This document shows positions 4,894 through 41,600 of a stretch of 64,000 nucleotides of DNA, in pieces. The position numbers and the translations under genes were made by a program. A model generated the notes under the pieces. That model ran no database searches and was not told where the DNA came from. It was given only the letters and a program-made list of their open reading frames with translations. How positions within the stretch are numbered: the first letter of the stretch is position 1; each line of letters begins with the position of its first letter. Source of the stretch: Phycisphaerales bacterium (GTDB lineage Bacteria; Planctomycetota; Phycisphaerae; Phycisphaerales; SM1A02); contig JBGAKK010000020.1 of assembly GCA_044224425.1 (NCBI GenBank), positions 1 through 64,000 of the forward strand, in the 5' to 3' direction.

Positions 4894-4926
4894 GTTGGGG
4901 GGACGGAAGTGCCGCGAGCGATGCAC

Positions 4927-5541: not shown

Positions 5542-5542
5542 G

Positions 5543-25311: not shown

Positions 25312-26790
25312 TCAGTTCACCTGGACGAGGGCCGGCGGTTGCCAGGTGCCCTTGCCCGGCGGCAGGATCGAGGGCTTCTCGACCTTCGGCCAGTAGAGGC
25401 GCATGACGAGGTAGATGGTGCCGTTCGGGGCCGGCAGCCAGTTCGACTCCTTGTCCTTGCCCGGCGAGTCGCGCTGGATGTAGAGGGTGAGCGACCCGTC
25501 GGCGTTCGTCTTCATCGACGAGAGCATCGGCGAGTTGATCAGGTAGCGGTTGATCGGGTTCTTGACCAGGAGCTGGTGCTCGCCGTCATACATGGTGACC
25601 GACCAGAAGGCGTTCACCGGCGGGAACTGGCCCTTGGCGAAGGTCAGCGTGTAGTTGTGCTTCGACCCGTCGAGCACCACGCCGTCCTTGGTGGTGCGGG
25701 TCATCGGGTACATGGCCTCTTCCGCGTCGTTGCCGTAGATGCCGGCCGACGCCGCGGCGGCCCGCAGCAGCCAGTCGCCGTTGTAGAAGGCCCGGTTGCC
25801 GAAGGCGGAGCTGATCCGCCAGCCGTTGATCGAGGCTCCGATCGCCCCGGCCTTCTCCTTCACCATCTTCTCGCCCTCCGCCACGCCGGCCGCGATCGCC
25901 TCGCGGTAGGCAGGCGGCAGGTCGGTCGCCTTGTGCGGCTTGCCGGTGCCGATCCCGAGCTTGGCGAGGCGGGCCCGGATGGCCTTCTCTTCCGGTCCCG
26001 GCGGAGCGAACTGGAGGCTGAAGTCGAGGTATTCGAAGAACTGGGTCTTCACCAGCTCCTTGCTGAAGGCAGGCCAGGCGATGGCCGGCGCGGGCGCCGG
26101 GGCCGGCGTCTTCAGGTAGGTCGAGAGCGGCCGAACCAGGTAGCCGGCCTGGACGGCCATCACGTTCGGCATGTCGTCCGCATTGAAGAGCTGGGTGCGG
26201 TAGACGGCGAGGCCGAAGTCGGTCGTGGACTGGAAGACGGCCTTGATGCCGGCCGGCTTGCTGCCCTTCCAGTTCGGCCCGACGACCAGGTAGTCCCCGG
26301 CGTCGCTGCCCGTGGCCCGGCTACCGATGTAGCCGTAGTTGAAGGTGTTGCCGTCGCAGAGCATCACCGAGTAGTAGCGGTCCTTGGGCACCGCCGGGAC
26401 GCTCAGCACCATCGGCTCGGCCCGCAGGTCGAGCCAGGCCATCGAGTATGGCGTGTCGCTGTTGGGGGTGGGGATCGAGGTGTCTTCGTAGGTGAAGACC
26501 CGGTGCTCGTTGTTGATCTGGTTGAACGGCGCCTTCCACTGGCCGGAGTTCCGGTCCAGCACGAAGTCGTTCATGACCCCGTAGTTCATGACGATGGGCA
26601 GGCCGTAGATGAAGCCGTCACGAGCGATCTCCTTGACCTCGGCGAGGCTCGGAAGCTCGGCCTTGCCGGCAGCGGCCTCGGCCGCCTTCGTCTCCTGCGT
26701 CGACGATGTCTTGCAGGCAGCGGCAGACAGCGCCGCCACCATGGCCAACCCTCGAAGGGTGCCGTACGCGAACTTCGTTCCTCGATCCAT
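25312..26790 (-). CDS. DUF1254/DUF1214-family lipoprotein
   Basis: Start MDRGTKF.. (ATG 26790); lipobox-like ..ALSAAAC. Family-characteristic blocks ..FWSVTMYD.. and ..YLVMRLYWP... Confidence 0.7.
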   Translation of the reverse strand: MDRGTKFAYGTLRGLAMVAALSAAACKTSSTQETKAAEAAAGKAELPSLAEVKEIARDGFIYGLPIVMNYGVMNDFVLDRNSGQWKAPFNQINNEHRVFTYEDTSIPTPNSDTPYSMAWLDLRAEPMVLSVPAVPKDRYYSVMLCDGNTFNYGYIGSRATGSDAGDYLVVGPNWKGSKPAGIKAVFQSTTDFGLAVYRTQLFNADDMPNVMAVQAGYLVRPLSTYLKTPAPAPAPAIAWPAFSKELVKTQFFEYLDFSLQFAPPGPEEKAIRARLAKLGIGTGKPHKATDLPPAYREAIAAGVAEGEKMVKEKAGAIGASINGWRISSAFGNRAFYNGDWLLRAAAASAGIYGNDAEEAMYPMTRTTKDGVVLDGSKHNYTLTFAKGQFPPVNAFWSVTMYDGEHQLLVKNPINRYLINSPMLSSMKTNADGSLTLYIQRDSPGKDKESNWLPAPNGTIYLVMRLYWPKVEKPSILPPGKGTWQPPALVQVN

Positions 26791-27136
26791 AGATGGGAGT
26801 CTCCCGACCGGCGGTCGGACACATCGTGCCGCCGGTCGCTTGCGACCCGGGGCAGACACCGACATCGACCCGACGTCGACGCCGCCACCTCCGGGGAGGC
26901 GGGATGGTAACGCAGCACGCCGCGGGCGAACCGCGGCGTGCTGTGGGGGGTTGTCCGAACTCCGCGAGGGTGACCGGATCGGCTCGGCCACCCTCGCGGG
27001 TCGGATCGAGGTGATGGCGGAAGGCCGCCGCGTGGACGGCTCGCCCTCAGAAGTGCCGCCGCCCGCAACGGAGATACCGGTCAGCCGGGAGCGGCTGATC
27101 TTTCGTTTGCGGTCGCGATAGCCGGGGATCGGCTGG

Positions 27137-28531
27137 TCAGAAGCTCCACGCCGCAATCAGGATGGAGAGGTCGGCAGCGTTGGTGGTGCCGTCCCCATCG
27201 AGGTCGGCGTTGGCCGTCCCCCACGAACTCAAGAGGATGCCGAGGTCGGAGGCCCCGACCACCCCATTGCCATCGAGGTCCGGGGTGAGGCCGGCCCCCA
27301 CCGCGCGGGCGAGGTCGAGGCGGCCCGTCCCGATGAGGCCGTCGAAGCCGGGATTCTGGAGGTAGATGGGCTTGGCCGTCCCCTTGAGCTGGTTCCGCAC
27401 CTCGGTCTGCGTCATCTCCGGATGGAGGGACTTGACGAGGGCTGCGGCGCCGGTGGCGAAGGCCGCCGCCACGCTCGTACCGTCGGCGATCGCGAAGCTC
27501 TCGCCGGGCGTCGTGCTGACGATGCCGATGCCCGGAGCGCAAAGGTCGATCTGCGTGCCGACCGCGCTGAATGGGGCGAGGACGTCGTTGGCGTCGGTCG
27601 CGGCCACGGCCAGAACCTTGCCGAGCGACGCCGGGAACAGCGGTCCGCCCTGGTCGGTGTTGCCGCCCGAGACGACCACCACGGCACCCGAGGCGACGGC
27701 GGCGTCGATCATCGACTTGACGAAGTCCGAACTCTGGGTGGAGCCGAAGCTCAGGTTGATGACGTCGGCCTGCTCCTCGATCGCCTCGGCCAAGGCAGCC
27801 GCGATGGCGAAGGTCTCGCCTTGGCCGTCAGAGTCCATGGCCCGGAGCGGAAGGATGGTGGCGGCCGGCGCGATGGTGTGCACGATGCCAGCCAGGAAGG
27901 TGCCGTGACCGGTCATCTCGTCGATCGCCCCGTCGCCGTCGTTGTCGAGCCCGTCGTTGCCGTCGGCCGAGCCGTCGGTGGCGCCGATGAAGTTGTAGCC
28001 GGTGATGAGCGGGCAGTCGGCGAGGTAGGAGTGCGTCTGGTCGAGACCCGTGTCGATGATCGCGATCACTACGCCCTTCCCGACCGTCACCTGGTGCGCT
28101 TCCTCAAGCCGCAAGAGTGGCCAGGCGTATTGCGAGTCGAACTGCGACGGCAGGGCCCCGAAGAAGAAGCTCTGGGTCTGGCCGTTCGAGATCTCGCCGC
28201 CCTCGTTGAACTCGACTTCCTCGACGCCGGGAATGCCCATGATCGCTTGGGCCACGGCCGACTCGCAGAGCGGCTCGGGCACCGAGATCAGCAGGTCGTC
28301 GTGGTCGGGCAGGGCGAAGAGGAGGCGGACCTGCGGATAGAGGGCGGTGATCTCGGCCATCACCGCGTCGACGTTGGCCCCGTCGTTGAGTTCGACGACC
28401 AGTTGGTCCTGCGTGGCGTGGTCGGGGACGCATCCGCCGTCGTCGTCCGCCCATGCTCCGCCTGCGAACCCGAGGGCCAGAAGGGTCGCGGCGATCGGCC
28501 AACGCGGGGATGTGACTCGGCTCGTACGCAT
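27137..28531 (-). CDS. secreted subtilisin-like (S8) serine peptidase with C-terminal dockerin-like repeats
   Basis: Catalytic D (VIAIIDTGLD), H (HGTFLAG) and S (GTSVAAAFATGAAAL) motifs. Signal peptide. C-terminus DLDGNGVVGASDLGILLSSWG / DLDGDGTTNAADLSILIAAWS. Confidence 0.9.
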   Translation of the reverse strand: MRTSRVTSPRWPIAATLLALGFAGGAWADDDGGCVPDHATQDQLVVELNDGANVDAVMAEITALYPQVRLLFALPDHDDLLISVPEPLCESAVAQAIMGIPGVEEVEFNEGGEISNGQTQSFFFGALPSQFDSQYAWPLLRLEEAHQVTVGKGVVIAIIDTGLDQTHSYLADCPLITGYNFIGATDGSADGNDGLDNDGDGAIDEMTGHGTFLAGIVHTIAPAATILPLRAMDSDGQGETFAIAAALAEAIEEQADVINLSFGSTQSSDFVKSMIDAAVASGAVVVVSGGNTDQGGPLFPASLGKVLAVAATDANDVLAPFSAVGTQIDLCAPGIGIVSTTPGESFAIADGTSVAAAFATGAAALVKSLHPEMTQTEVRNQLKGTAKPIYLQNPGFDGLIGTGRLDLARAVGAGLTPDLDGNGVVGASDLGILLSSWGTANADLDGDGTTNAADLSILIAAWSF

Positions 28532-28574
28532 CGAACTGCCTCTTGACATGATCCGAGGTCGGGGAACCCGAGCG

Positions 28575-31517
28575 TTACGACTGCTCGACGTCTCCGACCA
28601 ACCCGAACGCTGCCCACTCCGCCATTCTCACGCGACGAGCCCGCTGGGCGAGCATCGCCCGGCGGAGCACCTCCGAAGCCGGGGTCCGCGACCCTTTCGC
28701 CGGCGGCGGCACGGTGGCCGTGGATTCCGCGGAGGTTCCCAACTCGTCGTGGATTTCGACCATGAACCCTACGGCCGACTCATCATGCACCGGCCAGCCG
28801 CTCAGCACCACCCCTCGAGCGCCACTGGCGAAGAAACTGCGGAGGAGTCCCACCACTTCGTCGCCACCATCGACGGCCACCCGTCCGGTATCGCAGCCGC
28901 TGAGGACGACGAGCGACGCCGGCAGTCGCATGGAGAGAATTTCACGCGCCGTGAGCCAGCCATCAGCGAGTCGAAGTCCGGATTGGAGCGGGCTCTCGGC
29001 GACGAAGCGGCCGTGCGAGGCAAGATGGAGAAGATCGGCTTCGCGGCTCGCGACTCGCAGCGCCGCGATCGTGGCTTCGGCCCCAAGGAGCAGGCGGGCG
29101 TCGGGGTCGGCAGCGGCAATCACCGACGCTTCCTCCGCGATCGACGGCGCCTCCTCGTCCGCCACTCCCACCACCACGCGACGCCCCCCCGCCCGAGTCG
29201 CGCGCCGCCGCAGTGCCATCAGGACGCCGAGGCTCGGCACCGTGGCCACCGGCATGCGGGCAACGAGCGGCTCGCCATCGAGGGGGAGCGCGGCGAAGGG
29301 AACGGCGTGCAGGACGCCGGCCGGAACGAGCTGCAGTCGATCGGCCCCCGCCAGCGAGGAGAGCAGCGGGCGCAGGAGGAGATCGGAGAGCTGCTGGGCC
29401 GCGGCCGCCACGTCGCGCTCCAGCCGCTCGGCGCGAGAGGACGAGACGCCGCCGGCGACCAGGCTGCGGTGGAGCTGGAATCGCCAACGCTCGATGGCCT
29501 CGGCGATGACCTCGACCGGGCCGAGATCGTGGCCAGCGAGGCGCGCCGCGAGCGGCTCTGCGCTGCGGGCAGCCCGAACGGTGATCGCCATCAGGCGGCC
29601 ATCGGCGACCAGATAGCTGACCAAGGCGGTGCGCGGCGAGGAGGCATCGACCACGGCCCGGATGGCGTCCGCGTCGGCCGCCTTGGCCACCATGCCGCCA
29701 AACCGCTGGGTGACCGCGAGCCGCGACTCGAGCACCCCTTGCCGCGTCTCGAGGGCCAGGACCTCGGTCCGCCACGCATCGGAGATGGTGGCTGCCGGAT
29801 CGCGATCGAGCTTGCTGAAGAGGGCGTTCGTCCGGTGCCGCACCGCGGCGAGTTCGACCAGGAGGGCCGCCTCGTCCGACTCGTCCCTGACACCACGCCG
29901 CGCCGCGTCGTCCTCGGTCGCCAGCGTGGCGAAGTCGATCGCTCCGCTCATCAGTTCGACCAAGGTCCGGCTGCGGGCCTGTTCGGAAGCGACGAGGGCC
30001 TCGAGGACCTCGCCGCGGCGGAGGAGTTCACTCACCAACGTCTCCGACGCCGAACCATGTTGGGCGGCGAACGCCGAGCGGAGCCGGCCGCCGTTGAGCG
30101 TGCCACGCACCGCTTCGATCCGCTCGACTGCGGCCCGGAGGTCGGCCATGGCGGCGATCTCCTCGCCGCGCCGAAGCTGCCAACGGGCCCGCAGGTGGAG
30201 GCACTGCGCCTCGAGCGACCGGAGCAGCCGTTCGCGGGCCACGGCGAGCCCGTCGTCGATCAAGGCCCCGACCTCGTCGCTCGCTTCGGTCGAGAGGAGC
30301 ACCGTGGCCAGCCCGGCCCGGGCCAGGGCTTGCTCCACCGGCCGATCGGCGAGGGCGGCGACGGCCTCCCGGAAGAGGTGCACCGCCGCCTCGCCGTCCC
30401 CGAGGAGGACGGCGATCTGGGCTTCGATCCGGAGCACGCGTCCGTCTGGCCGGCCGGCGGCGCCGTCATGGGAAACGCGCAGCGGCGCGATCGCCTCGGC
30501 CGCCTCGTTCCCGCGTTGCAGGGCGAGCGAGGCGAGGGCCAGACCCATGCGGGCTCGGCGGGCCTCGGCGGAGAGCCCGTGCTGCTCGAGGAGCGGCAAG
30601 GCAGCGCGATAGGCAGCAACCGCCTCGCGGAGCAGGCCGGTCTGGGCGAAGGCGTCGGCTTCCTCGGCTTCGAGCCGCGCCGCGTCGCCGGGGGCGTTGT
30701 TGGCTTGGGCCCGGCGACGCACCCGCTCGAAGTGGGTGAGGGCTTCCTGCATGCGCCCTTGGCGAGCGAGCAGGTCGGCGAGGTTCCCTTCGACGATCGA
30801 GGCCGCCTGCGTCACCTGGGCCGACTCGAGGGCGGCGAGGGCCTCGCGGAAGGCCTGCTCCGCATCGATGAAGCGATCGAGGTCGAGGTGGGCCTCGGCG
30901 ATGTTCGAGCGAAGCTGGGCCCGGCCGACCGGATCGGCGCCCCACGCGGCGATGGCCCGCTCGAAGCAGGCGATGGCATTCGCGGGCCGGCGCAGCATGC
31001 GCTCGAGGACCCCGAGGTTGGCCTCGGCCTTGGCGGCCAACTCCGGTTGGCCCGCGGCAGCGAGCTGGTCGCGGGCCTTGGTCACCACGGCAACCGCTTC
31101 CTCGAGTCGCCCGAGCCGAGCCAGGGCATGGACGCGGTTGAGGTTGGTGCGGGCCTCGAGCGGCGCGTCGCCCGCCTCGCGGGCCTTGGCCCCGGCGGCA
31201 TCGAGGACGGCCAAGGCCTCGTCGAAGCGGTTCAGGTAGGTGAGGGCGAAGGCGGCCACGATCCGCGTGCGGGCCGAAGCGACCGGCTGCCCGAGGTGAT
31301 CGGCCAGGGCGACGAGCTGTTGGGCGGTGCGGGCCGCTGCGTTGGCGTCGACCGCCACCGAGCGCTGCGTCTCGTCGGCGGCTTGGGCCACAAGCTGGGC
31401 GGCGTCGACCGCTCCCAATGCACGACCCCACCGCGCAGCGAGGTCAGCGAGATCGGATTCGCTGGCGAGCTGGGCGAGGAGCGTGGTGGTGGTCGGTTCG
31501 GCCGCGCCAGTCGTCAT
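28575..31517 (-). CDS. TPR-repeat protein with C-terminal CHAT (caspase-like) peptidase domain
   Basis: Over 600 aa of TPR-like helical repeats, then a CHAT domain with the catalytic dyad ..LLHLASHGRF.. and ..LVVLSGCDTG... Its start overlaps the stop of the upstream gene as ATGA. Confidence 0.85.
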   Translation of the reverse strand: MTTGAAEPTTTTLLAQLASESDLADLAARWGRALGAVDAAQLVAQAADETQRSVAVDANAAARTAQQLVALADHLGQPVASARTRIVAAFALTYLNRFDEALAVLDAAGAKAREAGDAPLEARTNLNRVHALARLGRLEEAVAVVTKARDQLAAAGQPELAAKAEANLGVLERMLRRPANAIACFERAIAAWGADPVGRAQLRSNIAEAHLDLDRFIDAEQAFREALAALESAQVTQAASIVEGNLADLLARQGRMQEALTHFERVRRRAQANNAPGDAARLEAEEADAFAQTGLLREAVAAYRAALPLLEQHGLSAEARRARMGLALASLALQRGNEAAEAIAPLRVSHDGAAGRPDGRVLRIEAQIAVLLGDGEAAVHLFREAVAALADRPVEQALARAGLATVLLSTEASDEVGALIDDGLAVARERLLRSLEAQCLHLRARWQLRRGEEIAAMADLRAAVERIEAVRGTLNGGRLRSAFAAQHGSASETLVSELLRRGEVLEALVASEQARSRTLVELMSGAIDFATLATEDDAARRGVRDESDEAALLVELAAVRHRTNALFSKLDRDPAATISDAWRTEVLALETRQGVLESRLAVTQRFGGMVAKAADADAIRAVVDASSPRTALVSYLVADGRLMAITVRAARSAEPLAARLAGHDLGPVEVIAEAIERWRFQLHRSLVAGGVSSSRAERLERDVAAAAQQLSDLLLRPLLSSLAGADRLQLVPAGVLHAVPFAALPLDGEPLVARMPVATVPSLGVLMALRRRATRAGGRRVVVGVADEEAPSIAEEASVIAAADPDARLLLGAEATIAALRVASREADLLHLASHGRFVAESPLQSGLRLADGWLTAREILSMRLPASLVVLSGCDTGRVAVDGGDEVVGLLRSFFASGARGVVLSGWPVHDESAVGFMVEIHDELGTSAESTATVPPPAKGSRTPASEVLRRAMLAQRARRVRMAEWAAFGLVGDVEQS

Positions 31518-32206
31518 TGGGTGCGGAGGTCAACTCCAGGCAGGGAGAGCGCTCCCTCGCCGTCGGCGAGCTCGATCACGAGATCGACCCGCTGGGCGTC
31601 AAGGCGCAGCCGGAACTCGCCTTGCTCGTCGATGGGAGCGGAGGCGAGGAGGTGGAGGGGATCGTCGCCCGCTCCACGGGCGAGGGCATGGACGACGACC
31701 GGGGCCGGACCGGCGTCGATGGTCACCTGGCCGCGGAGGCGACGGGCGGCGAGGGCGTCGGCCTCGGTGTCGATCTGGACGTCGAGCCAAGCATCGATCG
31801 GGCTTCCTTCGGGGGTGTGGAAGCTGCGAACGGTGACCGCGCCGCGGCGGAACCCGGCCAGGGCCGGGGTCGGCGGCGAAAGGAGTTCCATGGCCACCAG
31901 CTTGGCCGAATCGAGCCAGCGACGAAGGGCGGCGATCGGATCGGGCTGGGCGGCGAAGAGGTCGATGGCCTTCTGGCGGAGGCCGGCCGGAACCGGATCG
32001 AGCGGCAGGTGGCGGAGTGCGTCGACCACGCCGCGGATCTCGCTAGCGTAGCGGGCCACCAGGCCGGGGTCGGCGTCGGCCGGGGCGGCGGGGTTGGCGG
32101 CCGAGCCAAGCACGGAATCGACGGCGGCGAGGAAGGCGTCCCGGGTCGCTTCGGGCCGGCGGTCGGACGGGAAGCCAGCGGGACGGTTGGAGGAGTCGTT
32201 GGTCAT
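31514..32206 (-). CDS. hypothetical protein between the ECF sigma and TPR-CHAT genes (anti-sigma or regulator candidate)
   Basis: Start MTNDSSNRPAGF (ATG 32206). 230 aa with no TM helix and no recognised motif. Translationally coupled to the TPR-CHAT gene. Confidence 0.5.
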   Translation of the reverse strand: MTNDSSNRPAGFPSDRRPEATRDAFLAAVDSVLGSAANPAAPADADPGLVARYASEIRGVVDALRHLPLDPVPAGLRQKAIDLFAAQPDPIAALRRWLDSAKLVAMELLSPPTPALAGFRRGAVTVRSFHTPEGSPIDAWLDVQIDTEADALAARRLRGQVTIDAGPAPVVVHALARGAGDDPLHLLASAPIDEQGEFRLRLDAQRVDLVIELADGEGALSLPGVDLRTQ

Positions 32207-32363
32207 CGCGAGGTGCCAGTCGAGAATCGAGACGGGGGTCCAGTGGCCGGCCCGGAAGGGCCTTGCGAAGGAGAAGTGCCTGCCGCCGTGGTCCTGATAC
32301 CGACTCGCAACCAGGATCCCGACCGGGGCCGGTGGAAGCGTGCGGCCTGTTCCGTCGGCGCGG

Positions 32364-33007
32364 TCAGGCCCCGTCCTCGAGCCAGGACGGCAGCTCCTCC
32401 CCCGCCCCGGCCGCCCGCAGGTGCCGGAGGAGTTTGGTGAGGCAGCGGGCACGACGCGGGCCGATCGACCCGATCGGGATCGAGAGCTGGGCGGCGATCT
32501 CGGGGAGGTCTCGCTGTCCCTGGTCAGGGCCATGAGGAGGTCCCGGCACGACGGTTCGAGGAGCTGGATCGCCTCCGAGACCTTGGCGATCGCCTCCCAT
32601 CGCTCCGAGGCCTCGCGAGGGTCCTCCTCCTCGGCGCCAGGGCGGAGGAGCTGTTGCTTCCGATGCCGCTGCACGAGCCGCATGGCCACGCGGCGGGTCG
32701 TGGTCGCCAGCCACTGCGGTAGCGCAGCCTCGTGCTGCAGCGAGGGCAAGCTGCGGACGAGAATGGCGAAGACCTCCTGGAAGGTGTCCTCGACGACCTC
32801 GTTTGGCATCCCGAGGCGGCGCGGGATGGCGTAGACAAGCCGTTCGTACTTCTTGACGAGCGTGGTCCACGCCCGCTGGTCTTTGGCCAGGCAGGCCCGG
32901 ATGAGGTCACGATCGCCGCCGTCGACCGCGCCGCCAAACGCCCTCGCCCCAGCGCGCGGCGCGACCTCGTGCGATTCACCTCGACCCGTCGGCTTCGAAT
33001 GCGGCAT
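32364..33007 (-). pseudogene. ECF (sigma-70 family) RNA polymerase sigma factor with apparent 1-nt frameshift near 32520
   Basis: Sigma region 2 (DLIRACLAKDQRAWTTLVKKYERLVYAIPRRLG..EDTFQEVFAILVRSL) and the start of region 4 (LLEPSCRDLLMALTRD) are in one frame. The remainder of region 4 (QRDLPEIAAQLSIPIGSIGPRRARCLTKLLRHL) is in the -1 frame, ending at 32364. Restoring a single nucleotide after ..agg gac gives a canonical ECF sigma. Confidence 0.6.
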
Positions 33008-33120: not shown

Positions 33121-34170
33121 ATGAATGCCTTCCGCGAGACCTTCGAGAGGGAGTGCAAACCCCGCTTCGGCCGAGCGAATCCGGAGCGGATGCGACTTCC
33201 CTATTGGGAGTGGATGGTCCGTTCCATGGAGAACCCGTTCTCGGTCCGCGAACGTCTCGGGCTTCCACAGAATTTCCCGGCCTGTGCCCGTAGCGAGGTC
33301 GAGGGCGCGACGTGCGGAATGCGGCCCGAACCCGATTGGTGCTTCGACCGTTTCGGGGCCACCCGAACCTCGCTGCCCGACGGCCGGATCCTCTGCGTGG
33401 GCGGCGAGCACGAGGACTGGTACGACCCCGACTTCTGCATCTATAACGACTTGGTGGTGAAGCGCCCGACACCCGGGGCGACCGACGTGACGAAGGACGA
33501 GGGGGAGGTCGAGATCTACGGCTACCCGGAGGAGGTCTTCCCGCCGACCGACTTCCACACCGCGACCTTGGTCGCCGACCGCGTGCTCCTGGTCGGGCGA
33601 CTCGGCTACGCGGAGGGACGCGACCCGAAGTCCACGCCCATCTACGCGCTCGACACCACGAGCTACGCCATCGAAGGCCTCAGCGCGAGCGGCCCCTGCC
33701 CCGGCTGGATCTACAAGCACCACGCCTCGTACGAGGCAGGGCGGCACGCTCTTCTCGTCCGCGGCGGCCGATCGCTCGACCACAGCCGCCACACCGACGT
33801 GCACCGGCTTCACCTCGCCGACCGACGCTGGGAACTCGTGGCCCGCAACGAACGGCACCGCGGGTTCACCCTCCACACCAAGCACGTGGGCAACCCGACC
33901 TGGGAAGCGACGATTGACGAGCTGCGCCCGCGCCGCGTGCCGCACACCCCCCTCCCGCCCGACGGCCGCGAGGTGATGCGCTACGCGATCGACGTCCAAG
34001 GGGCCCGCTTCACGTTCCTCGAGCTCTACACCACGATCAAGGTCCTCCTCGAAGGCGAGCTGCCCGAGGAGGTCGTGCAGGCGGTGTTCGATGACGTTCG
34101 GGCCCAGCTCGCCAAGGGCTCGGGGAGCCCGTGGCTGGTGGAGGAGAGGGAGATCGAGGAGGCGGAGTGA
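33121..34170 (+). CDS. hypothetical protein
   Basis: 349-aa ORF with coherent GC3. No motif recognised. Confidence 0.5.
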   Translation: MNAFRETFERECKPRFGRANPERMRLPYWEWMVRSMENPFSVRERLGLPQNFPACARSEVEGATCGMRPEPDWCFDRFGATRTSLPDGRILCVGGEHEDWYDPDFCIYNDLVVKRPTPGATDVTKDEGEVEIYGYPEEVFPPTDFHTATLVADRVLLVGRLGYAEGRDPKSTPIYALDTTSYAIEGLSASGPCPGWIYKHHASYEAGRHALLVRGGRSLDHSRHTDVHRLHLADRRWELVARNERHRGFTLHTKHVGNPTWEATIDELRPRRVPHTPLPPDGREVMRYAIDVQGARFTFLELYTTIKVLLEGELPEEVVQAVFDDVRAQLAKGSGSPWLVEEREIEEAE

Positions 34171-34313: not shown

Positions 34314-37300
34314 CTAGTTCGCTCCCGGTCGCCGGTCGTGCGGGACCACCACCACGCAACTGGTCACCGCCAGGTTCCCCGCGCTATCCACCGCCGCCAC
34401 GTCGAACGTGTACGCCCGGCCGTCGCCGCTCCCCGCACGCTCCGCGCGCAGCTTGACGGTGCCTACCCATGCCCCTAGCGACGGCTGGTACGTCAGCTTG
34501 CTCGTAACGTTCCGCGGCGAGGCATATCCGTCGGAGCCGTCCACATCGCCGGTCGTCGAGCCGTCGCCGCCTCCCGGCGCGTCGTCCGGCTCGTCGCTCC
34601 GCACCGTCACCACGAGTGGCAGGACCGCCCCCGGGTCGATGCACGCGTCGGTCGCACGCACCACCACCTGCACGTCCCGCATCTTGTGGTCCGGCGGCCA
34701 CAACGCCGCGACGCTCGTCGTGCACTCCACCTCCGGGGGCGTGGTGTCCTGCACGCTCACCAGCACGTCGCAGGTGCTCACGCCGCCGCGCCCGTCCGCC
34801 ACCGTCAGCGTGGCCATGGTGACGCCGACCGGGAAAAGCCCTGTCGCCACGCCGCCCTCGGGGTCGTTGAGCGCCACGCTCTGGTCCGAAACGTCCCAGT
34901 GGTAGTGCAACGACTCCGGCGGATCGTCGCCGTCGGTCGCACTTCCCGTGAGGGTCACCACCGCGCCGAGGAACGATGCGCATTCGGTGGGCATCGCGCC
35001 ATCCTCTCCCAGCGCGATCGCCTGGCAGCTCGGCCGCAGGTTCACGTCTCCAACAGTGAAGCCGCAGGCTGTCGATTCGCCGCTCAGGCCGGCAAAGGTG
35101 ATCGTCAGCGTCTCCGGAACCAGGGCCTTGTCCGCCGCGGTCGGCGTCCAGGAGACAGTCGCGACCGCGCCGTCGACCTCGACCGTCGCACCGGGCGGGC
35201 CGGAGAACGACACGGCCAGCGTGTCGCCGTCGGGGTCGAGGCCCGTGACGACCGCAGAGATCGTCTCGCCCTCGGTGACCACGTAGGAGCCGTCGGCCAG
35301 AGTCGAGAACATCGCGTCCAACTGAGTCCCGTCCACGCTGCAGATCGGCGGCGCGTTCAGTGGAGGCAGCTCAAACACGTACATAGCACCGGAGTCCTGC
35401 GCTCCGTTGCTCGCCTCATTCCCGTCTACGCCGCTCGCAGCGCTGTCCTCATAAGGCGCGCAAAGCACAACGGTCCGTCCAGACATCGCGACCGAGGCGC
35501 CGAAGTGGTCACCTGCACCGGTGTTCGATGCCTTCAGATACGCCGACTGGCTCCAGGACCCCCCACTCCGCTCGAACAGATACGCGGCACCAGCTATCGG
35601 CGCGTCGCCGTTCCACTGGTCTCCATTGATGCCGGTGGCAGCACTATCTTCGTATACAGCGCCGACGACGAGTGTGTCATCCCTCAGCACCAGCGACCAG
35701 CCAAACCAATCCATCGTGCCCGTGTTTGACGCTTTGAGATATGCCTGCTGGCTCCAATTGCCTCCGGTACGAACGAACACGTACACGGCGCCGGAATCTG
35801 TTGCGCCGTTGTCCCATTGATCTCCGTCAATTCCAGTCGCCGCGCTGTCCTCTGCAAAGGTTGCAACCACCACTGTATCGCCCGAGACAGCGACCTCTCC
35901 GCACCCGAACTGATCGCCCGGCTCTGTATTTGATGCCTTGAGATATGCTTGCTGGCTCCATGTCTCCCCGCTTCGAACGAAGATGTACGCAGCCCCAGCG
36001 TCCCACGCCGTATTGTCCGCTTGATCGCCGTTGACACCAGTGGCAGAGCTGCGCTCCCCAAATGCGGTGATAGCAACCGTCTCGTCTGAGATCGCAACCT
36101 GCCATCCGAAGCCGTCGTATGCGTCAGTGTTCGACGCCTTCAGGTACGCCTGCCGACTCCACGTCTCACCGTTTCGGACAAACACGTAGGCGGCACCCGC
36201 ATCGGCGGCGGCATTGCTTGACTGATCGGAATCTACACCGGTGGCGGCGCTGTCCTCGTACGTCGCTCCAATGACGACCGTGTCGCCGGAGATCCCGATC
36301 GCGCGGCCAAAGAGGTCGCCTGATCCCGGATTCGACGCCTTCAAGTACGCCTGTTGGCTCCACGCCCCACCGCTGCGAACAAACACATACGCGGCACCCG
36401 ATTCCGGAGCTGCGTTGTTTGACTGATCGCCATTCACCCCGCTGGCGGCACCATCTTCCTGCCACGCTCCGACTACGAGCGTGCTACCGTCCGTCGAGAG
36501 CACCACCGGCCAGCCGAACCGGTCGCCCGGGCCCGTGTTTGAAGCCTTCAGGTAAGCCTGCTGCGTCCATGTTGCTCCGTTGCGAACGAACACGTATGCG
36601 GCACCCGACTCTGTGGCCGCATTGTTCGACTGGTCACCATTCACACCGGTCGCGGCGCTGTCCTCGAGAGGCGCCCCTACAACCACAGTGTCGCCCGCGA
36701 TTGCGACCGAGCGGCCGAATATGTCCACGGAGCCAGTGTTCGAGGCTTTGACATATGCGCCCTGCAGGATCGGGTCGATCGTCACTGGATAGCGGGCCTT
36801 GCGGTCATCGATGAAGAGGCGGAGAGACCTCTCCTCTGATTCCAATCTCGCTGGCACCGAGAGACCATCGGCGTCGAACGCGGTGAGTCCCGAGTAGGTC
36901 AATATCAACGCACCGCTATCGTCCAGAAGGCGCACCGCACGCCCATCAGTCGCCGCCTCAGCACACAAGTCACCGCGCAGGTTCAAGACGAGGCTGAGTT
37001 CGCCATCACCTTCAAGCCGCTCGCGCAGCGTGTATCCGTGCTCCAGCCCACGCCAGTCATTCACATACCACTCGGAAAGCGCGGCATCCCATGCGTAGGT
37101 CACCCGCTGGCCTTCGACGTGTACGCTCGCCGCGCCGTCGACCGCATGCTCGTGTCCTGATCGACCCCACGACACAAGCTCGAGGCCCCAGCGCCAGTCG
37201 TGTTCGTTCGGCACCACATCAAAGCCTCGTCCGTCGAAGCGCGTTGTCCATCGATGCCCCGGATTCCACGCACGATGCTCATCGCCATCCGCACCTACGG

Positions 37301-37463
37301 CGTAGCGACCGGACTCATATGCCGCGCAAATGCTGCCCCAGTCCGCAGCGGAGATCCCCTGTGGCGCAGTGACATCTCTCAAGGCCTCGGCCCCCGACGC
37401 GTGCGAGAGCACGACGGCACAAATGGCGGCGATGTAACCGCTCCTCCCGTCGACTGGCTTCAT
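34314..37463 (-). CDS. large secreted FG-GAP-repeat (integrin-alpha-like beta-propeller) protein with C-terminal Ig/PKD-like domains
   Basis: Start MKPVDGRSGYIAAICAVVLSHASGAEA (ATG 37463, RBS gggag). Eight near-identical ~60-aa repeats (AYLKASNTG.GD.FG.SVA.SGDT.VVGA..EDSAATGV.GDQS.N.A..SGAAYVFVR.G..WSQQ) followed by beta-sandwich domains. Confidence 0.8.
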   Translation of the reverse strand: MKPVDGRSGYIAAICAVVLSHASGAEALRDVTAPQGISAADWGSICAAYESGRYAVGADGDEHRAWNPGHRWTTRFDGRGFDVVPNEHDWRWGLELVSWGRSGHEHAVDGAASVHVEGQRVTYAWDAALSEWYVNDWRGLEHGYTLRERLEGDGELSLVLNLRGDLCAEAATDGRAVRLLDDSGALILTYSGLTAFDADGLSVPARLESEERSLRLFIDDRKARYPVTIDPILQGAYVKASNTGSVDIFGRSVAIAGDTVVVGAPLEDSAATGVNGDQSNNAATESGAAYVFVRNGATWTQQAYLKASNTGPGDRFGWPVVLSTDGSTLVVGAWQEDGAASGVNGDQSNNAAPESGAAYVFVRSGGAWSQQAYLKASNPGSGDLFGRAIGISGDTVVIGATYEDSAATGVDSDQSSNAAADAGAAYVFVRNGETWSRQAYLKASNTDAYDGFGWQVAISDETVAITAFGERSSATGVNGDQADNTAWDAGAAYIFVRSGETWSQQAYLKASNTEPGDQFGCGEVAVSGDTVVVATFAEDSAATGIDGDQWDNGATDSGAVYVFVRTGGNWSQQAYLKASNTGTMDWFGWSLVLRDDTLVVGAVYEDSAATGINGDQWNGDAPIAGAAYLFERSGGSWSQSAYLKASNTGAGDHFGASVAMSGRTVVLCAPYEDSAASGVDGNEASNGAQDSGAMYVFELPPLNAPPICSVDGTQLDAMFSTLADGSYVVTEGETISAVVTGLDPDGDTLAVSFSGPPGATVEVDGAVATVSWTPTAADKALVPETLTITFAGLSGESTACGFTVGDVNLRPSCQAIALGEDGAMPTECASFLGAVVTLTGSATDGDDPPESLHYHWDVSDQSVALNDPEGGVATGLFPVGVTMATLTVADGRGGVSTCDVLVSVQDTTPPEVECTTSVAALWPPDHKMRDVQVVVRATDACIDPGAVLPLVVTVRSDEPDDAPGGGDGSTTGDVDGSDGYASPRNVTSKLTYQPSLGAWVGTVKLRAERAGSGDGRAYTFDVAAVDSAGNLAVTSCVVVVPHDRRPGAN
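35360..36790. repeat. tandem ~180-bp coding repeats (8 FG-GAP units) inside 34314..37463
   Basis: Nucleotide-level near-identity between units, e.g. repeated ..gtacgcctgctggctccacg.. and ..gaacacgta(c/t)gcggcacc.. blocks. Confidence 0.6.
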
Positions 37464-38047
37464 AACGGCTATCTCCCTTCTTGAGAAGGCCGCGCTTGTT
37501 CGCGGCAACTACGTACGCGACAACCGGGGGCGTATCCCGCAGCGAGATCACGCTGGGCCGGTTCCTCTGTCGCGCGCGGCGCCAAAGACGATGGCTTGGG
37601 ACCGACGCGTAGATCAAGTGGAGCCTCCTGACGGGCTGCCTGAAACTGACGGCGACTCGGACCAGGACGCCGTCCCTCGAACAAACACTGCGCTCTCGGG
37701 CCAGCGGAGGGCGCCGATCGGAGAGATCGGTCCCCGTTGCGCCCTGTGTGCCACCGTCTCTCGCTCGAAGACCCCGCGGCTCGTCAAGCTCCCGGTCACA
37801 CCCGCTCGATCGCGGGCCGAATGACCGCTTGTCGCGTAAGTCCGGACTCCCGCAGAGAGCGGAGCGCCGAGGGGACATAGCTCACCGGCGAGCCAACTTG
37901 CAGGGCCTACGGTCAGTTAGCTCGTTGGGGAGCAACCGATGCCCCGCACGGGCCCGGAGGCTGACTGGCCAGCAGTGCGTAGACCGCGTCGGCACCGAGA
38001 CCGAGCTGGATCCGCATCCCCGCTGAACTGGAGGTGGTAATGCGCTC

Positions 38048-38641
38048 TTGCATAGGCGTTCACCCCTTCGCTACCCTGCTCGTACGCGAGAGGATGCCGC
38101 CAACACTCAGCCGCGGGAGCGGACGGGGGGAGAGCCCGGGCCGCAGGCGGCGGACTTGTTTCAACTTGTCTACTCCGAGCTGCACGCGATCGCGCAGGCC
38201 ACGTTGTTGCACGAGCGCAAGGACCATACGCTGCAGGCCACGGCCCTAGTGCACGAGGTGTACCTCAAGCTCTCCCAGCAGACGCATGTCCGATGGAGGG
38301 GCCGCAGCCACTTCTTGGCTGTCGCCTCCGAGGCCATGCGGCGGATTCTGGTTGACCATGCGCGGACACGCGGGCGCGTCAAACGCGGCAACGGTTGGCG
38401 GCGCGTGCCGATGGCCGCGGCGGAAGAGGCACAGGGTCCAGGATCACTCGATCTCTGCGACCTGGACGACGCGCTCACCGCCTTGGAGCGACTTGAGCCG
38501 CGCTTGGCCAAGCTCGTGGAGCTCCGCTTTTTCGGCGGCCTCACGGCCGAGGAGGCCGCTGGCGTCCTTGATGTCTCGCTCCGCACCGCTGAGGCTGACT
38601 GGGCCTTTGCCCGCGCTTGGTTGCAGAAGCGCATGGCGTGA
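38048..38641 (+). CDS. ECF sigma factor of the kinase-associated (TIGR02999-like) subfamily
   Basis: N-terminus ..AADLFQLVYSELHAIAQ..LQATALVHEVYLKL.., C-terminal HTH ..LTAEEAAGVLDVSLRTAEADWAFARAWLQ. Stop is 5 nt before the kinase start. Confidence 0.85.
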   Translation: MHRRSPLRYPARTREDAANTQPRERTGGEPGPQAADLFQLVYSELHAIAQATLLHERKDHTLQATALVHEVYLKLSQQTHVRWRGRSHFLAVASEAMRRILVDHARTRGRVKRGNGWRRVPMAAAEEAQGPGSLDLCDLDDALTALERLEPRLAKLVELRFFGGLTAEEAAGVLDVSLRTAEADWAFARAWLQKRMA

Positions 38642-38646
38642 TCGTC

Positions 38647-41600
38647 ATGACCCCTGAGCAATTCGGCCACGTGAGGATCCTCTTCCGGGAAGCGCAATTG
38701 CTTGGCGGCGCTGCGCGGGAGGCCCTTCTCCAAGGCGAGGCAGACACGGCCGTCTTGGACGAGGTGCGGAAGCTCCTCGATGCGGACGCCAGCGAGAGCG
38801 ACTTCCTCGCCGAGCCTGCCCTCGGCCACGGCTTTTCGGTGGGCGCGGCCGCCCAAGGATCCCCGGTCGGTCTGGCGGGAGAGCGACTCGGGGCCTACCG
38901 CGTCCGGCGACTGATCGCCGAGGGCGGCATGGGCGCCGTCTACGAAGCCGAGCAGGACCGGCCGGCACGAGTGGTGGCCCTCAAGGTCCTCCGCCCGACC
39001 AGCAGCCGCTCGGAGGCAGCACGGCGATTTCGGCTGGAGGCCGAACTCCTCGGTCGCCTCGAACACCCCAACATCGCCCCTATCATCGAGGCGGGTTCCG
39101 GCGTCATCCGCGATTCGAGCTACGCATTCCTGGCCCTGGCCATGGTATCGGGGGCATGCTCGATCCTCGACTACGGCGAGCGGGCGCGGCTCCGTGTCCA
39201 CCAGCGCGTCCAACTCGCGATCAAGGTGTGCGCTGGCCTACAGCACGCCCACCTCCGCGGCGTCATCCACCGCGACCTCAAGCCATCGAACATCCTCGTC
39301 GGCGACGACGGCGAGCCGAAGCTCATCGACTTCGGGGTGGCCACGGCCCAGGACATCGATTTGGGCACGCTCGCCCCGAACACCCAGACGGGCGAACTCG
39401 TGGGCACCGTCCTCTACATGAGCCCCGAGCAGTGCGAAGGACGCTCGCATTTGAGCGACGTGCGCAGCGACGTGTACTCCTTCGGTGTCGTACTGTATGA
39501 GCTTCTCACCGGCGCACTCCCCTACCCCATCAAGGCGGCCGCCCTCCCGGAGGCGCTTCGCGCCATCACCGAGCATGCGGTGGTGCCCCCCAGCGCCGTC
39601 TCCCCCGACGTGCGCGGCGATCTCGAGACCATCGTTCTCAAGTCACTAGCCCGAGATCCTGGCGATCGTTACCAGTCTGCGGGCGAGCTCGCCGACGATC
39701 TGGCCCGCTGGCTTCGACATGAGCCGGTGCGGGCACGTCCCCCGACCATCATCGGCCGCTTCGTGAGCAGCGTGCGCCGCCGTCCTTGGCAGTTCGCCGT
39801 CGCTGCCTTGGCGGTCGCGTTCCTTCTCGCCGCAGCGATCGGCTCCGCCCTGTATCGGTCATGGAGCGAAGCGGAGGGCGCTCGTGGCGAAGCCGATAGG
39901 GCCCGCACGATCGCGGAGGGAGCACGATCCGAGGCGGAGCGACTCGCTCGCCGCCAAAGCCTGATGGCGGCGCAAGAGGCGATACGCGGTGGCGATGCAC
40001 GGGCCGGGCGAGCCGCAATGACTGGGCTGGCACCGGGCCATCCTGGCAGTGAGGTGCCATGGGAGGAACTCGACTGGCGTAACGCGGCTTGGGAGGTGCG
40101 ACACTACGCAGGCTGCATGGACGACGCGATCTCCATCGCGGCTCGCCTCGAGACTCCAGCTCAGGCTGCGTGCTGGCTCGGAGCTGGGGGCCTACTCGCG
40201 GTCGGTGGAGCGGATGAACTGCGAATCATCAAGGTGAGCGAAGACGGAGCTTGCCACACGCTCACGACATACGGGTTCGCCGATCTCACCGGCGATCGGC
40301 GCATCGGGCTCGGCCCGGATCCATCGCGGCCGCGGGTGGTCGCAGCCCCATCGAATACCGCAGCGCCGCACTTCGTTCACTTGGCAGCCGATTCCGCAGG
40401 TCGCCGCCTGCTCGTCAACCACCAGTCGTGCTACGCAATCTTCGACGTGGACACGAATGGCGCGGTCACGACCCTTGCCGCCTGGTCGCACTCCGTGGTT
40501 TCGGGTGGCGCATGCGCTCTCTCCCCGGATGGCTCGCTCGCAGTGACGGTTCACGACGGCGAAGTCCGCTGCTTGCGAGTCAGCGCCAAACCCGCTCCGC
40601 GCGTGGACTTCTTGGGCCAATGCCGAATCGGGCAAGACGACCTCGAGATCGCCGACATCGCGTTCTCGCCGGACAGCACCAAGCTCGCGATTGGCGCAGC
40701 GGACTGGAGCACAAAGATCGTCGGCGTCGCGCAACTCCTCGATGCCTGCTGCGGTCAGAGCGATGCAGTCCTTCCTAGCGTCAGCCTTGAGGGCCACCGG
40801 GGCAAGGTCCGAGGCGTAGCGTGGAGTCATGCTGGCACGGAGCTGGCCACCGCATCGCTTGACGGCACGGCTCGCGTGTGGCGCATCCCTGCCTCGATTG
40901 AACCTGGGCAGGCCGCAATCCGAGCGACTGCTGTACTCGACGCCCTTGGCGACCCTCTTACGCGCGTGACATGGCTCGCCGACGGCCGCATCGCCGTGCC
41001 GACAAGGTCGTTCGGGCTTCGCATCTGGGGTGGCATCGAACCCGAGTCGATGCGTGCACCCGGTGCAGCGCCGAGGCAGTCCACGCCACAACCTCACCAA
41101 GTTGCCCTGCTCCTCGGTCAGGAAGACAGCATCCAGGCGTTGAGCTGCCACCCCCAGCTCCCACTCGTCGCTACGGCCAGTCTGGACGGGACTATCCGCA
41201 TTTGGTCCGGTCACGACCTGGGTGCCGCTTTGATCGTGCGGGGGCATACGAGCAGCGTGGTAGACGCAGCCTTCCTTCCTGGCAGCCGTTACTTCGTTAC
41301 GGGGGGTGGCGAAGGACTACTGGGAATCTGGGACGCGAAGCAAGGCGGCGAGTGCCTTGGATTGGTACGGGTCTCCGACGTCCGCGTCCGCGGCGTGGTC
41401 GCCCATCCGGTGCTTCCGATGGTCGTCGCTTGTGGCGACTCCGCTGACCTGAGGCAGGAAATGCCCGACGCGCCACGGGCGACGATCTGGGACCTCGCGG
41501 ATCCCGGTCGACCGCTGCTCCGAGCGATCGTCCGCAGTGGTGGTTCGATCATCACAGCCTTGGCTATGAGTCCGGACGGCCATATGCTCGCTGCCGGCGA

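Follow-up and report, generated by a model that had tools for sequence, protein, structure and literature searches.

What function could hold together an ECF sigma factor, a protein of 230 residues (p230), a TPR-CHAT protease and an S8 subtilase, which are encoded in this order on one contig of a Phycisphaerales bacterium? In the window, as we call the whole analyzed stretch of 64,000 nucleotides, the four genes occupy positions 27137-33007 as co-directional ORFs on the minus strand. A first-pass annotation, made from the sequence alone, had described them as a sigma-controlled proteolytic operon, and the layout that it gave is borne out: all four ORFs are present where it had placed them, 157 nt lie between the sigma gene and p230, counted from the sigma stop at 32364 in a second reading frame, p230 and the TPR-CHAT gene share an ATGA overlap at 31514-31517, and 43 nt separate the TPR-CHAT gene from the subtilase when the latter starts at 28531. 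Around the cassette, the window encodes DUF1254/DUF1214, MacB, Kelch and FG-GAP proteins and an ECF-STK pair. The Kelch (33121-34170) and FG-GAP (34314-37508) genes were considered as further parts of the module and rejected, as they are conserved in no related locus. Known RNA families were absent from the cassette region at E<=1.

The Cassette Is Kept Together across Phycisphaerae

A scan for the CHAT family yielded 53 loci, nearly all of them in Phycisphaerae MAGs. By tblastn, related loci show a sigma gene, a gap of ~700 nt, a CHAT gene and then an S8 gene, and in 51/51 loci an iterated HMM search found the gap between sigma and CHAT to be filled by a full-length p230 homolog (E 1e-26 to 1e-70). 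The order sigma-p230-CHAT is thereby found in all 51 related loci, and S8 lies downstream of CHAT in 44 of 49; five cassettes have no S8, so the subtilase is not essential to the core. The p230 and CHAT genes overlap in 20 of the 51 loci, and their junction measures <=13 nt in 36. When the search was run in reverse, from distant p230 homologs and with gene calls made independently, the same four-gene order came back.

The cassette proteins have diverged among their hosts to 29-51% identity, and the genes flanking the cassette vary: the upstream neighbors are mutually unrelated, and they are transcribed divergently in 23 loci and in the direction of the cassette in 22. As an arrangement that recurs in about 50 diverged genomes is far beyond chance, the four genes are a genuine module, which about fifty Phycisphaerae genomes have retained as a unit. 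The first-pass annotation had staked its operon on such co-conservation elsewhere, and the loci clearly bear it out on this point. It had also remarked on the absence of cas genes, and none are found among the window neighbors or among the called genes of the related loci L001-L003, L058, L060 and L062. A survey of 2.9 million viral contigs gave no relatives of the cassette, and a phage origin was rejected on this ground.

A Frameshift Peculiar to the Window Record

The sigma gene (32364..33007, minus strand) is frameshifted in the window, as had been recognized in the first pass. Three-frame translation places its sigma-2 part, which matches Pfam Sigma70_r2 at 3.8e-8, in frame from 33007 and its sigma-4 part in the -1 frame, ending with a TGA at 32364. 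Three independent Logan metagenome contigs (L001-L003) are 100% identical to the window over 13-16 kb save for four extra bases, TACG, which are missing from the window at ~32503/32504, and these contigs encode an intact sigma factor of 215 aa. The frameshift hence goes back to a 4-nt deletion that only the window record has, or to an error in its assembly; a programmed frameshift was rejected on the same evidence. The deletion leaves a single ORF of 497 aa, in which the sigma-2 domain is joined in frame to p230.

The intact allele, taken from L001, scores 35 bits against Sigma70_r2, above the 24-bit cutoff, and 16.6 bits against Sigma70_r4_2, under the cutoff of 25.7 bits, so that the sigma-4 assignment rests on an alignment with E. 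coli sigma-E, which covers residues 32-189 and spans both domains. The sigma factor further reaches 46.1 bits against TIGR02937 (cutoff 42.9), and its sequence places it in the ECF (group IV) branch of the sigma-70 family.

p230 Resembles Soluble Anti-Sigma Factors

What is the protein encoded next to the sigma gene? The AF2 model of p230 (31514..32206, minus strand), built from a shallow alignment of 25 sequences and with a pLDDT of 78.5, predicts a four-helix anti-sigma-like domain at residues ~18-109 (31880-32155), a linker of low confidence that carries A-L-A-G118-F-R120 (31844-31885), and a C-terminal beta-sandwich, Ig-like or CarboxypepD_reg-like, at residues 126-226 (31529-31831). The window protein taken alone matched no model in Pfam or NCBIfam, so that its assignment as an anti-sigma factor rests on family profiles and homologs. 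A profile of the N-terminal region has RslA (3hug_B, 5.8e-4) and RskA (4nqw_B, 2.8e-3) as its top PDB matches, which are modest at E ~1e-3, and the DdvA anti-sigma domain is found among the weak matches. Among 58 family members, the NCBIfam 'antisigma' model NF052375 matches 25 (best 1.2e-10), PRK13920 matches 18, Pfam zf-HC2 matches eight and ChrR-type models match six.

The zinc motif HxxxCxxC occurs in the N-terminal 120 residues of 0/65 family members; if p230 contains an anti-sigma domain (ASD), it is thus a non-zinc ASD. Neither a TM segment nor a signal peptide was detected in p230, for which the maximum 19-residue hydropathy is 1.01. Profiles and model together support p230 as a soluble, zinc-less class I ASD protein, in line with the earlier guess of an anti-sigma-like role, and as such it would bind its sigma factor and hold it inactive. 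A comparison with Csx30- and Csx31-like CHAT substrates, likewise proposed in the first pass, gave a different outcome, as p230 showed no similarity to either protein.

The most conserved motif of the p230 family is LAG-x-R, with R120 present in 64 of 65 members and G118 in 61. These two residues fall where the pLDDT drops below 50 (residues 117-120), which makes the linker a candidate cleavage site. The motif could also be a docking or folding element and not the scissile site.

A Predicted Cytosolic Caspase-Like Protease and a Secreted Subtilase

The TPR-CHAT gene (28575..31517, minus strand) encodes 980 aa, with a TPR superhelix at residues ~58-600 and a CHAT domain at residues 705-976 (28590-29405). 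Pfam detects CHAT at 9.2e-49 along with TPR families including TPR_12, and the AF2 model has a pLDDT of 88. The His/Cys dyad read from the motifs ASHG and SGCDTG in the first pass is present as H835 (29013-29015) and C875 (28893-28895), both invariant in 39 CHAT orthologs; with its dyad intact, CHAT is predicted to be an active-type protease. The top Foldseek matches are separase, Csx29 and DdvA (E 1e-14 to 2e-11), so the Csx29-like architecture that had been proposed is upheld and extends to the other two. No TM segment or signal peptide was found in TPR-CHAT, the maximum 19-residue hydropathy of 1.66 lying inside the CHAT core, and the protein is probably cytosolic.

The S8 ORF spans 27137..28549 on the minus strand. 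Its likelier start is the ATG at 28531, which has an AGAGG Shine-Dalgarno sequence 8 nt upstream and yields a protein of 464 aa (27137..28531) with the N-terminal sequence MRTSRVTSPRWPIAATLLALGFAGGAWA and a signal peptide. Peptidase_S8 (PF00082) matches at 7.9e-43, and the Asp-His-Ser triad together with the oxyanion Asn (D160, H209, N291 and S353) does not vary in any of the 43 orthologs. Against the mycosin model TIGR03921 the subtilase scores 160.3 bits, under the cutoff of 278.75 bits, mycosin being merely the nearest named subfamily. Two dockerin-like repeats of DxDGDG type lie at the C terminus (about 27140-27280). Of the original description as an S8 protease with dockerin repeats, the protease stands firmly, while the dockerin part is plausible but borderline: Dockerin_1 (PF00404) scores 20.9 bits, just below its cutoff of 22.9 bits, and only a subset of orthologs has kept the repeats. 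The secreted subtilase is the likely output of the cassette.

A Promoter-Like Motif Faces Back into the Operon

How might the sigma factor act on its own locus? About 14-19 of 46 loci carry a cassette-specific ECF-type motif, GGAGC-N16-GATAC, ahead of the sigma gene. When a PWM was built from these upstream sites alone, it detected, at >=12 bits, antisense copies between sigma and p230 in 33 of 51 loci, where 1.05 are expected and the sense orientation occurs once, and antisense copies after S8 in 12 of 42 loci, again with 1.05 expected and with none in sense orientation. At >=18 bits, about 50 matches are found on both strands of 0.99 Mb of loci, some two-thirds of them at these three cassette positions, and the motif recurs in two loci outside the training set (L058 and L060). 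The cassette sigma factor would use GGAGC-N16-GATAC as its promoter. Other roles of the motif were considered and rejected. The antisense motif cannot in general be the promoter of a gene that runs divergently upstream, like the window Kelch gene, as the upstream genes are unrelated and face either way; an inverton or recombination site is at odds with the conservation of only two short blocks, whose spacers vary from copy to copy even at a single locus; and a general housekeeping promoter would not be rare outside the cassette.

The window has only two copies of the motif, both antisense to the cassette on the plus strand, and none upstream of sigma. One (32274..32301, AAGTGCC-N14-TGATACC, PWM score 17.6) lies in the intergenic region between sigma and p230 and points into the sigma 3' end; the second (27051..27078, AAGTGCC-N14-AGATACC, PWM score 18.5) lies just past the S8 stop, points into S8 and is followed directly by a hairpin and T-rich tract at 27079-27110. 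As the motif is only antisense and sigma is frameshifted, induction of S8 by sigma is unsupported for the window copy. Given the 4-nt deletion and the lack of a forward promoter copy, this copy of the cassette may be inactive. For the window, the proposal of a sigma-controlled module is only half right, as the motif is missing ahead of sigma and present in antisense alone; the sigma allele of the window is broken as well.

Relation to Known Protease-Controlled Sigma Factors

Which known systems does the cassette resemble? In the Craspase arm, which consists of Csx29, Csx30, Csx31 and CASP-sigma, a TPR-CHAT protease is likewise accompanied by genes for an ECF-type sigma factor and an inhibitor of sigma. 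There, Csx29 cleaves Csx30 and the inhibition of CASP-sigma is relieved (PMC10028731), a logic that the cassette would share if its CHAT cuts p230. Csx29, too, combines a TPR array with CHAT and its His-Cys dyad (Foldseek 8eey_B at 4.8e-13). However, the cassette CHAT scores only 27.5 bits against the 300-bit cutoff of the Csx29 family model NF041237, and over the CHAT core only, and the cassette protein is larger, with 980 aa compared to about 700. In contrast to Csx30, p230 appears to be a classical anti-sigma domain protein. Judged from the called genes, the cassette has no Cas7-11/gRAMP, Csx30 or Csx31; its activator cannot be guide-RNA target binding, and a secreted S8 protease is attached to it.

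A second relative is DdvA of Myxococcus xanthus, whose anti-sigma part and TPR-CHAT domain form a single fusion protein (PMC11506125); anti-sigma domain, TPR-CHAT and the ECF sigma factor DdvS make up one regulatory unit. The fold matches (Foldseek E 1.7e-11), and CHAT cleavage in a flexible linker beside the anti-sigma domain has been proposed there as well (PMC11506125). However, DdvA is one membrane-spanning polypeptide with a zinc ASD and a periplasmic TPR-CHAT, whereas the cassette appears to split ASD and TPR-CHAT between two soluble cytosolic proteins without the zinc motif. DdvS moreover governs a CBASS/CRISPR island, and the cassette lacks such an island; reports of DdvA-like proteins are confined to Myxococcota and a single Comamonas species (PMC11506125).

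More distant in fold are CalpL-CalpT-CalpS (SAVED-Lon, anti-sigma factor and ECF-like sigma factor) and DegS/RseP-RseA, in which a protease that serves this purpose and is activated by a signal cleaves an anti-sigma factor and releases an ECF sigma factor, as the cassette protease would; cleavage of the anti-sigma factor CalpT by CalpL is summarized in 10.1101/2023.06.23.546230. The proteases of these systems have Lon or S1/S2P folds in place of the caspase-like CHAT, their inputs are cyclic oligoadenylate or envelope stress, and RseA-type systems are membrane-bound. To the Borvo protein BovA, the resemblance is confined to residues 824-926 of the cassette CHAT (25.9 bits). In structure, the whole TPR-like-plus-CHAT protein is matched best by separase (E 1.2e-14), which is nonetheless a eukaryotic cell-cycle enzyme with 12% identity and unrelated substrates and regulators. 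Separase cleaves after Arg, and this specificity fits the near-invariant Arg of the p230 linker, which we regard as a lead only.

A Proposed Switch and Its Alternatives

How would these parts work together? Our preferred model, to which as a whole we grant an even chance, is that of a self-contained, vertically inherited Phycisphaerae cassette in which CHAT cleaves the anti-sigma factor p230 and frees the ECF sigma factor. By its domains and its place next to the sigma gene, p230 would be the protein that keeps sigma inactive. Upon a cytoplasmic cue sensed via the long TPR array, TPR-CHAT would cleave p230, most likely in the linker L-A-G-x-R and after the Arg, such that the anti-sigma domain would be detached or destabilized and sigma set free. 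Free sigma would then bring RNA polymerase to the GGAGC-N16-GATAC promoters. The forward promoter upstream of sigma in many relatives would confer positive autoregulation on the operon, including the secreted S8, and the backward copies, located between sigma and p230 in most loci and after S8 in a minority, would give rise to sigma-dependent antisense transcription as a negative feedback. In a bolder form, which we consider unlikely, the cassette would be a free-standing cytosolic caspase-type switch that cleaves after the linker Arg, uses its own promoter both ways, limits itself via antisense transcription and possibly represents the ancestor type of the Craspase arm. As type III-E systems occur in Planctomycetota, such a module could be the ancestor type of their CHAT-inhibitor-sigma arm.

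Regulator and output are, however, indistinguishable from gene order alone, and p230 might be an anti-sigma factor of the ordinary kind whose inactivation takes another route, through a partner switch, general proteases or a ligand of its beta-sandwich, with TPR-CHAT and S8 being outputs of the regulon. A cytosolic and a secreted protease would then be made when sigma fires, and CHAT would act on other substrates. As a secreted enzyme, S8 is clearly of the output type, a specific contact between CHAT and p230 is putative, and the linker motif might be a degron or docking site. Against this, all 51 loci, even the five without S8, pair CHAT with p230, the translational coupling of p230 and CHAT points to stoichiometric partners, and the characterized sigma-linked bacterial TPR-CHATs all act on, or belong to, an anti-sigma component (PMC10028731, PMC11506125); we hold this alternative to be possible but doubtful.

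Could the cassette instead serve in anti-phage defense or conflict, with a CRISPR-free CHAT that senses infection, as in Borvo or Craspase, and brings about transcriptional or proteolytic suicide or defense? CHAT proteases do recur in defense systems, the known sigma-linked ones, Craspase and DdvA, are defense-related (PMC10028731, PMC11506125), and PADLOC finds domain-level matches to BovA (1.1e-6) and 'subtilase' (6e-21). Yet the PADLOC matches are weak and cover catalytic domains only, the neighborhoods consist of heterogeneous housekeeping and envelope genes and are not defense islands, the cassette is class-wide and diverged with its hosts rather than patchy, viral contigs contain no relatives, and a secreted protease with signal peptide and dockerin-like repeats suits an extracellular role, not abortive infection, all of which renders a defense function quite improbable. 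That the adjacency is incidental, or that the genes form separate transcription units without a functional link, might be read from the backward-facing promoter-like motif in the 157-nt gap between sigma and p230, but this is effectively refuted by conservation: order and orientation are kept in about 50 genomes at 29-51% identity amid variable flanks, the downstream junctions are overlapping or short, and terminator-like sites do not separate the genes beyond chance, with three found against 1.7 expected and none of them intergenic on the coding strand.

Implications

What would such a switch mean for the biology of these bacteria? The cassette is probably an uncharacterized, CRISPR-free relative of the known switches in which a protease frees a sigma factor, with CHAT cutting p230. 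Characterized sigma-linked TPR-CHAT proteases are of two kinds only, the CRISPR-tied Craspase and the membrane-embedded fusion DdvA; a soluble version with separate sigma factor, anti-sigma factor and protease, available in about 50 natural variants, would, if true, be a simple study system. It would open the questions of how caspase-like proteases of bacteria can be activated when no guide RNA is involved and how they control transcription, and with LAG-x-R as a clear candidate site, their choice of substrate would become approachable. The cassette also supplies a promoter prediction for one Planctomycete ECF family, together with an unusual and statistically strong case of cognate promoter-like motifs facing back into their own operon. 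For the Phycisphaerae, an environmentally abundant and mostly uncultured class, it offers a likely route by which a secreted subtilase is regulated.

Gene Layout and Conservation of the Cassette

The window, with a GC content of about 70%, contains four co-directional minus-strand open reading frames where the first-pass annotation had placed them. The sigma gene (start 33007, stop 32364; Pfam Sigma70_r2) is followed by the 230-aa p230 (31514..32206), by TPR-CHAT (28575..31517; Pfam CHAT 9.2e-49, along with TPR families) and by S8 (27137..28549; Pfam Peptidase_S8 7.9e-43), with a start ATG at 28531 and an AGAGG ribosome-binding site. The junctions are equally as described there, with 157 nt from the sigma stop (32364) to the p230 start, an ATGA overlap at 31514-31517, and a 43-nt gap from CHAT to the S8 ATG. 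Terminator-like sites show no excess between the cassette genes, and no known RNA families were found in the cassette region.

Is this arrangement peculiar to one genome? At the sequence level p230 is a near-orphan, with two matches among 5.8 billion clustered proteins and, for a two-sequence profile, 18 among 1.84 billion representatives. About 40 full-length orthologs of CHAT were recovered at 29-49% identity, their annotations pointing to Phycisphaerales MAGs, and scanning their alignment against one genome per species yielded 53 loci, nearly all from Phycisphaerae or Planctomycetota MAGs. Searching these with the window proteins (tblastn) placed an ortholog of sigma 0.9-1.4 kb upstream of CHAT wherever the flank was long enough, and one of S8 directly downstream in 44 of 49 loci. 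Iterating an HMM over the interval between sigma and CHAT recovered, in 51/51 loci, a full-length p230 homolog (E 1e-26 to 1e-70), which overlaps CHAT in 20 and lies within 13 nt of it or overlaps it in 36. The sole other close relative of p230 comes from a contig of 961 bp, where it overlaps a CHAT-like N terminus in the same manner. A reciprocal search from three very distant p230 homologs (P0088, P0092, P0094), which drew on independent gene calls and on Pfam hits computed beforehand, returned the order Sigma70_r2, p230, TPR/CHAT, S8 once more. The gene set is clearly co-conserved, where the first-pass annotation had counted a lack of co-conservation as the outcome that would speak against it; sigma, p230 and CHAT form its core, which S8 very often joins as a fourth gene. 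A search of viral contigs returned no relatives.

The surroundings are not shared. The Kelch-repeat (33121-34170, +), FG-GAP_2 repeat (34314-37508, -, 1064 aa) and DUF1254/DUF1214 (25312-27156, -) neighbors in the window do not recur in the related loci (tblastn); they are genome-specific and lie outside the conserved cassette. Across loci the upstream neighbors are mutually unrelated, among them a histidine kinase, FG-GAP/ASPIC, DUF255, an M16 peptidase and oxidoreductases, and they divide between divergent (23 loci) and co-directional (22 loci) orientations. The window also carries a second ECF sigma factor (38048-38641, +; Pfam Sigma70_ECF PF07638, 1.4e-49) overlapping the beginning of a gene for a 1398-aa Ser/Thr kinase with WD40 propellers (38617-42813, +), an ECF-kinase pairing typical of Planctomycetes.

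S8 is absent from five cassettes (L030, L042, L035, L038, L054), at least two of which are second copies in MAGs with a complete cassette: L030 beside L009 in JAEUIU01, and L042 beside L007 in JBGAQH01. As judged from reading ORF translations rather than from a family search, a convergent dCMP-deaminase-like gene follows L030, L042 and L054.

p230 as a Putative Anti-Sigma Factor

Pfam returned no match for the window p230, which likewise matched none of zf-HC2, CarboxypepD_reg, NF052375, PRK13920 or the ChrR-type models; its anti-sigma assignment is one by transitive homology. Compared with PDB sequences, a 58-member p230 profile matches the anti-sigma domains of RskA, RslA, RseA and MucA with its N-terminal part and the CarboxypepD_reg-like repeat of NOMO with its C-terminal part. 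An N-terminal-only profile places RslA (3hug_B, E 5.8e-4) and RskA (4nqw_B, 2.8e-3) at the top, in an alignment spanning the region that bears HxxxCxxC in zinc anti-sigma factors, a motif found in no p230 family member. Scanned singly, members match zf-HC2 (8/58), CarboxypepD_reg (8/58), the NCBIfam 'antisigma' model NF052375 (25/58, best 1.2e-10), PRK13920 'putative anti-sigmaE' (18/58) and ChrR-type models (6/58); in most, no transmembrane segment is evident. The proposal of an anti-sigma-like protein thus holds, on the strength of the family and N-terminal profiles, while a Csx30-like nature is not supported.

The AF2 model of p230 (pLDDT 78.5) has helices at 18-33, 47-66, 74-85 and 90-109 and a confident eight-strand sandwich at 126-226, joined by a low-confidence linker at 110-125 in which pLDDT falls below 50 at 117-120. 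It is in this linker that the most conserved positions of the family reside, L-V-F-D-S-x-x-A-L-A-G118-[FLY]-R120-[GSA], with R retained in 64/65 and G in 61/65 members.

The TPR-CHAT and S8 Proteins

TPR-CHAT has neither a signal peptide nor a transmembrane segment, and its H835 and C875 are unchanged across 39 orthologs. Its AF2 model (pLDDT 88, pTM 0.86) consists of a long TPR superhelix followed by the CHAT domain, and among solved structures it comes closest to separase (1.2e-14), Csx29 in Craspase (4.8e-13) and DdvA (1.7e-11), at identities of 12-16%. Membership in the Csx29 family was rejected (27.5 bits against a 300-bit cutoff), as was membership in Borvo BovA. In S8, the N terminus is signal-like, and the catalytic Asp, His and Ser together with the oxyanion Asn are invariant in 43/43 orthologs. 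Its two dockerin-like repeats, sub-threshold for Pfam Dockerin_1 in the window (20.9 versus 22.9 bits), are retained in some orthologs only.

A Promoter-like Motif at Three Fixed Places

Counts of paired k-mers in the regions upstream of sigma (46 loci) revealed AGGAGCC-N14/15-(A/T)GATAC(A/C), with the core GGAGC-N16-GATAC spaced as in ECF promoters. We trained a PWM on these forward sites only and set its threshold by shuffling. The forward motif exceeds it in some 14-19 loci, about a third, and is found upstream of sigma neither in the window nor in its closest clade. The same motif occurs in reverse 30-110 nt beyond the sigma stop, directed into sigma, reaching at least 12 bits in 33/51 loci (1.05 expected from shuffles) and at least 18 bits in 14 (0 expected), and again after S8 in 12/42 loci (1.05 expected). 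Sense copies at these places number 1/51 and 0/42, and CHAT-internal control positions (n=51) gave one antisense and no sense hit. Both reverse copies are present in the window, at 32274-32301 (+, 17.6 bits) and 27051-27078 (+, 18.5 bits), each with the variant -35 box AGAAGTGCC. The motif was found again in L058 and L060, loci outside the training set.

Conservation is confined to the two blocks while the spacers vary, which favors a promoter over a recombination site. A general promoter was rejected: both strands of 0.99 Mb of loci hold about 50 hits of at least 18 bits, and around two in three of these fall at the three cassette positions. We infer that the motif is the cognate promoter of the ECF family of the cassette. 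The backward orientation of the other copies is observed, and suggests sigma-dependent antisense promoters bracketing the operon.

The whole window has six hits of at least 15 bits (1.3 expected), the further ones being at 13476 (+), 35555 (+), 36814 (+) and 46396 (-); two are antisense within the FG-GAP gene, and one lies about 50 nt upstream of an ORF (44957-46345, -) with no Pfam match. Directly after the motif downstream of S8 is a terminator-like hairpin (27079-27110, +; GGTCAGCCGGGAGCGGCTGATC then TTTCGTTTGC), within whose stem a transcript from 27051-27078 would begin. In the S8-less L038, an antisense motif directly follows CHAT. One clade has an extra strong copy (+ strand; L043 ~6663, L044 ~6791, L056 ~6625, L060 3268, L062 4431) at the 3' end of a glycosyltransferase gene located upstream on the minus strand. 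This copy too is directed antisense into the gene, entering from the 3' side as the others do. In L024, an 812-aa protein with Kelch-like repeats and a C-terminal dockerin-like pair (~4180-6618, minus; reverse-complement ORF coordinates 14409-16847) starts 320 nt downstream of a 20-bit copy (6966, -) near the cassette. This protein, a possible regulon member, recalls the non-conserved Kelch gene beside the window sigma.

The Sigma Frameshift

The sigma gene is indeed frameshifted in the window, with region 4 in another frame. Three Logan assemblies (L001-L003), which stem from separate sequencing runs, encode the exact p230 protein and match the window perfectly across 13-16 kb bar one 4-nt gap: around 32503 they read GACCTCC-TACG-CCGAG, the window GACCTCCCCGAG. 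When TACG is included, the reading frame runs through to give a complete ECF sigma factor of 215 aa, which aligns with E. coli sigma-E over residues 32-189, covering both domains. We therefore reject the frameshift as a feature of the system and attribute it either to a 4-nt deletion private to this record or to an assembly error. The deletion leaves an uninterrupted 497-aa ORF (31514-33007, -) joining sigma-2 in frame to p230 via some 100 codons that are out of frame or intergenic. This ORF could in principle yield a fused sigma2-anti-sigma protein, but at 70% GC it probably means nothing. The window copy of the cassette may be inactive, given its broken sigma and the lack of a forward promoter.

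Relation to Known Systems and Proposed Mechanism

The release of ECF sigma factors by proteases is well established, with DegS and RseP acting on RseA. CalpL cuts CalpT, whereupon CalpS is released (as summarised in 10.1101/2023.06.23.546230), and cleavage of Csx30 by Csx29 relieves the inhibition of CASP-sigma (PMC10028731). DdvA, which bears its own TPR-CHAT domain, is described as the sole characterised anti-sigma factor with such a domain, and DdvA-like proteins were found in Myxococcota and one Comamonas species only (PMC11506125). Caspase-ECF sigma neighborhoods of other types have been noted in comparative genomics (PMC8195603). Our full-text literature search found no description of a split, soluble, CRISPR-free cassette or of its S8 link.

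What can be discerned about the role of this cassette? Comparison of the loci establishes, at the level of sequence, a sigma/anti-sigma pair that is conserved and shows translational coupling to a predicted cytosolic TPR-CHAT protein with intact catalytic residues and usually followed by S8, a predicted secreted subtilase whose catalytic residues are likewise intact; a specific two-block motif occupies three fixed places. In the mechanism we propose, CHAT would cut the p230 linker, probably after R120, freeing sigma to transcribe from the motif. The forward copy, where present, would confer positive autoregulation, the backward copies would exert negative feedback via sigma-dependent antisense transcription, and S8 would constitute the extracellular output.
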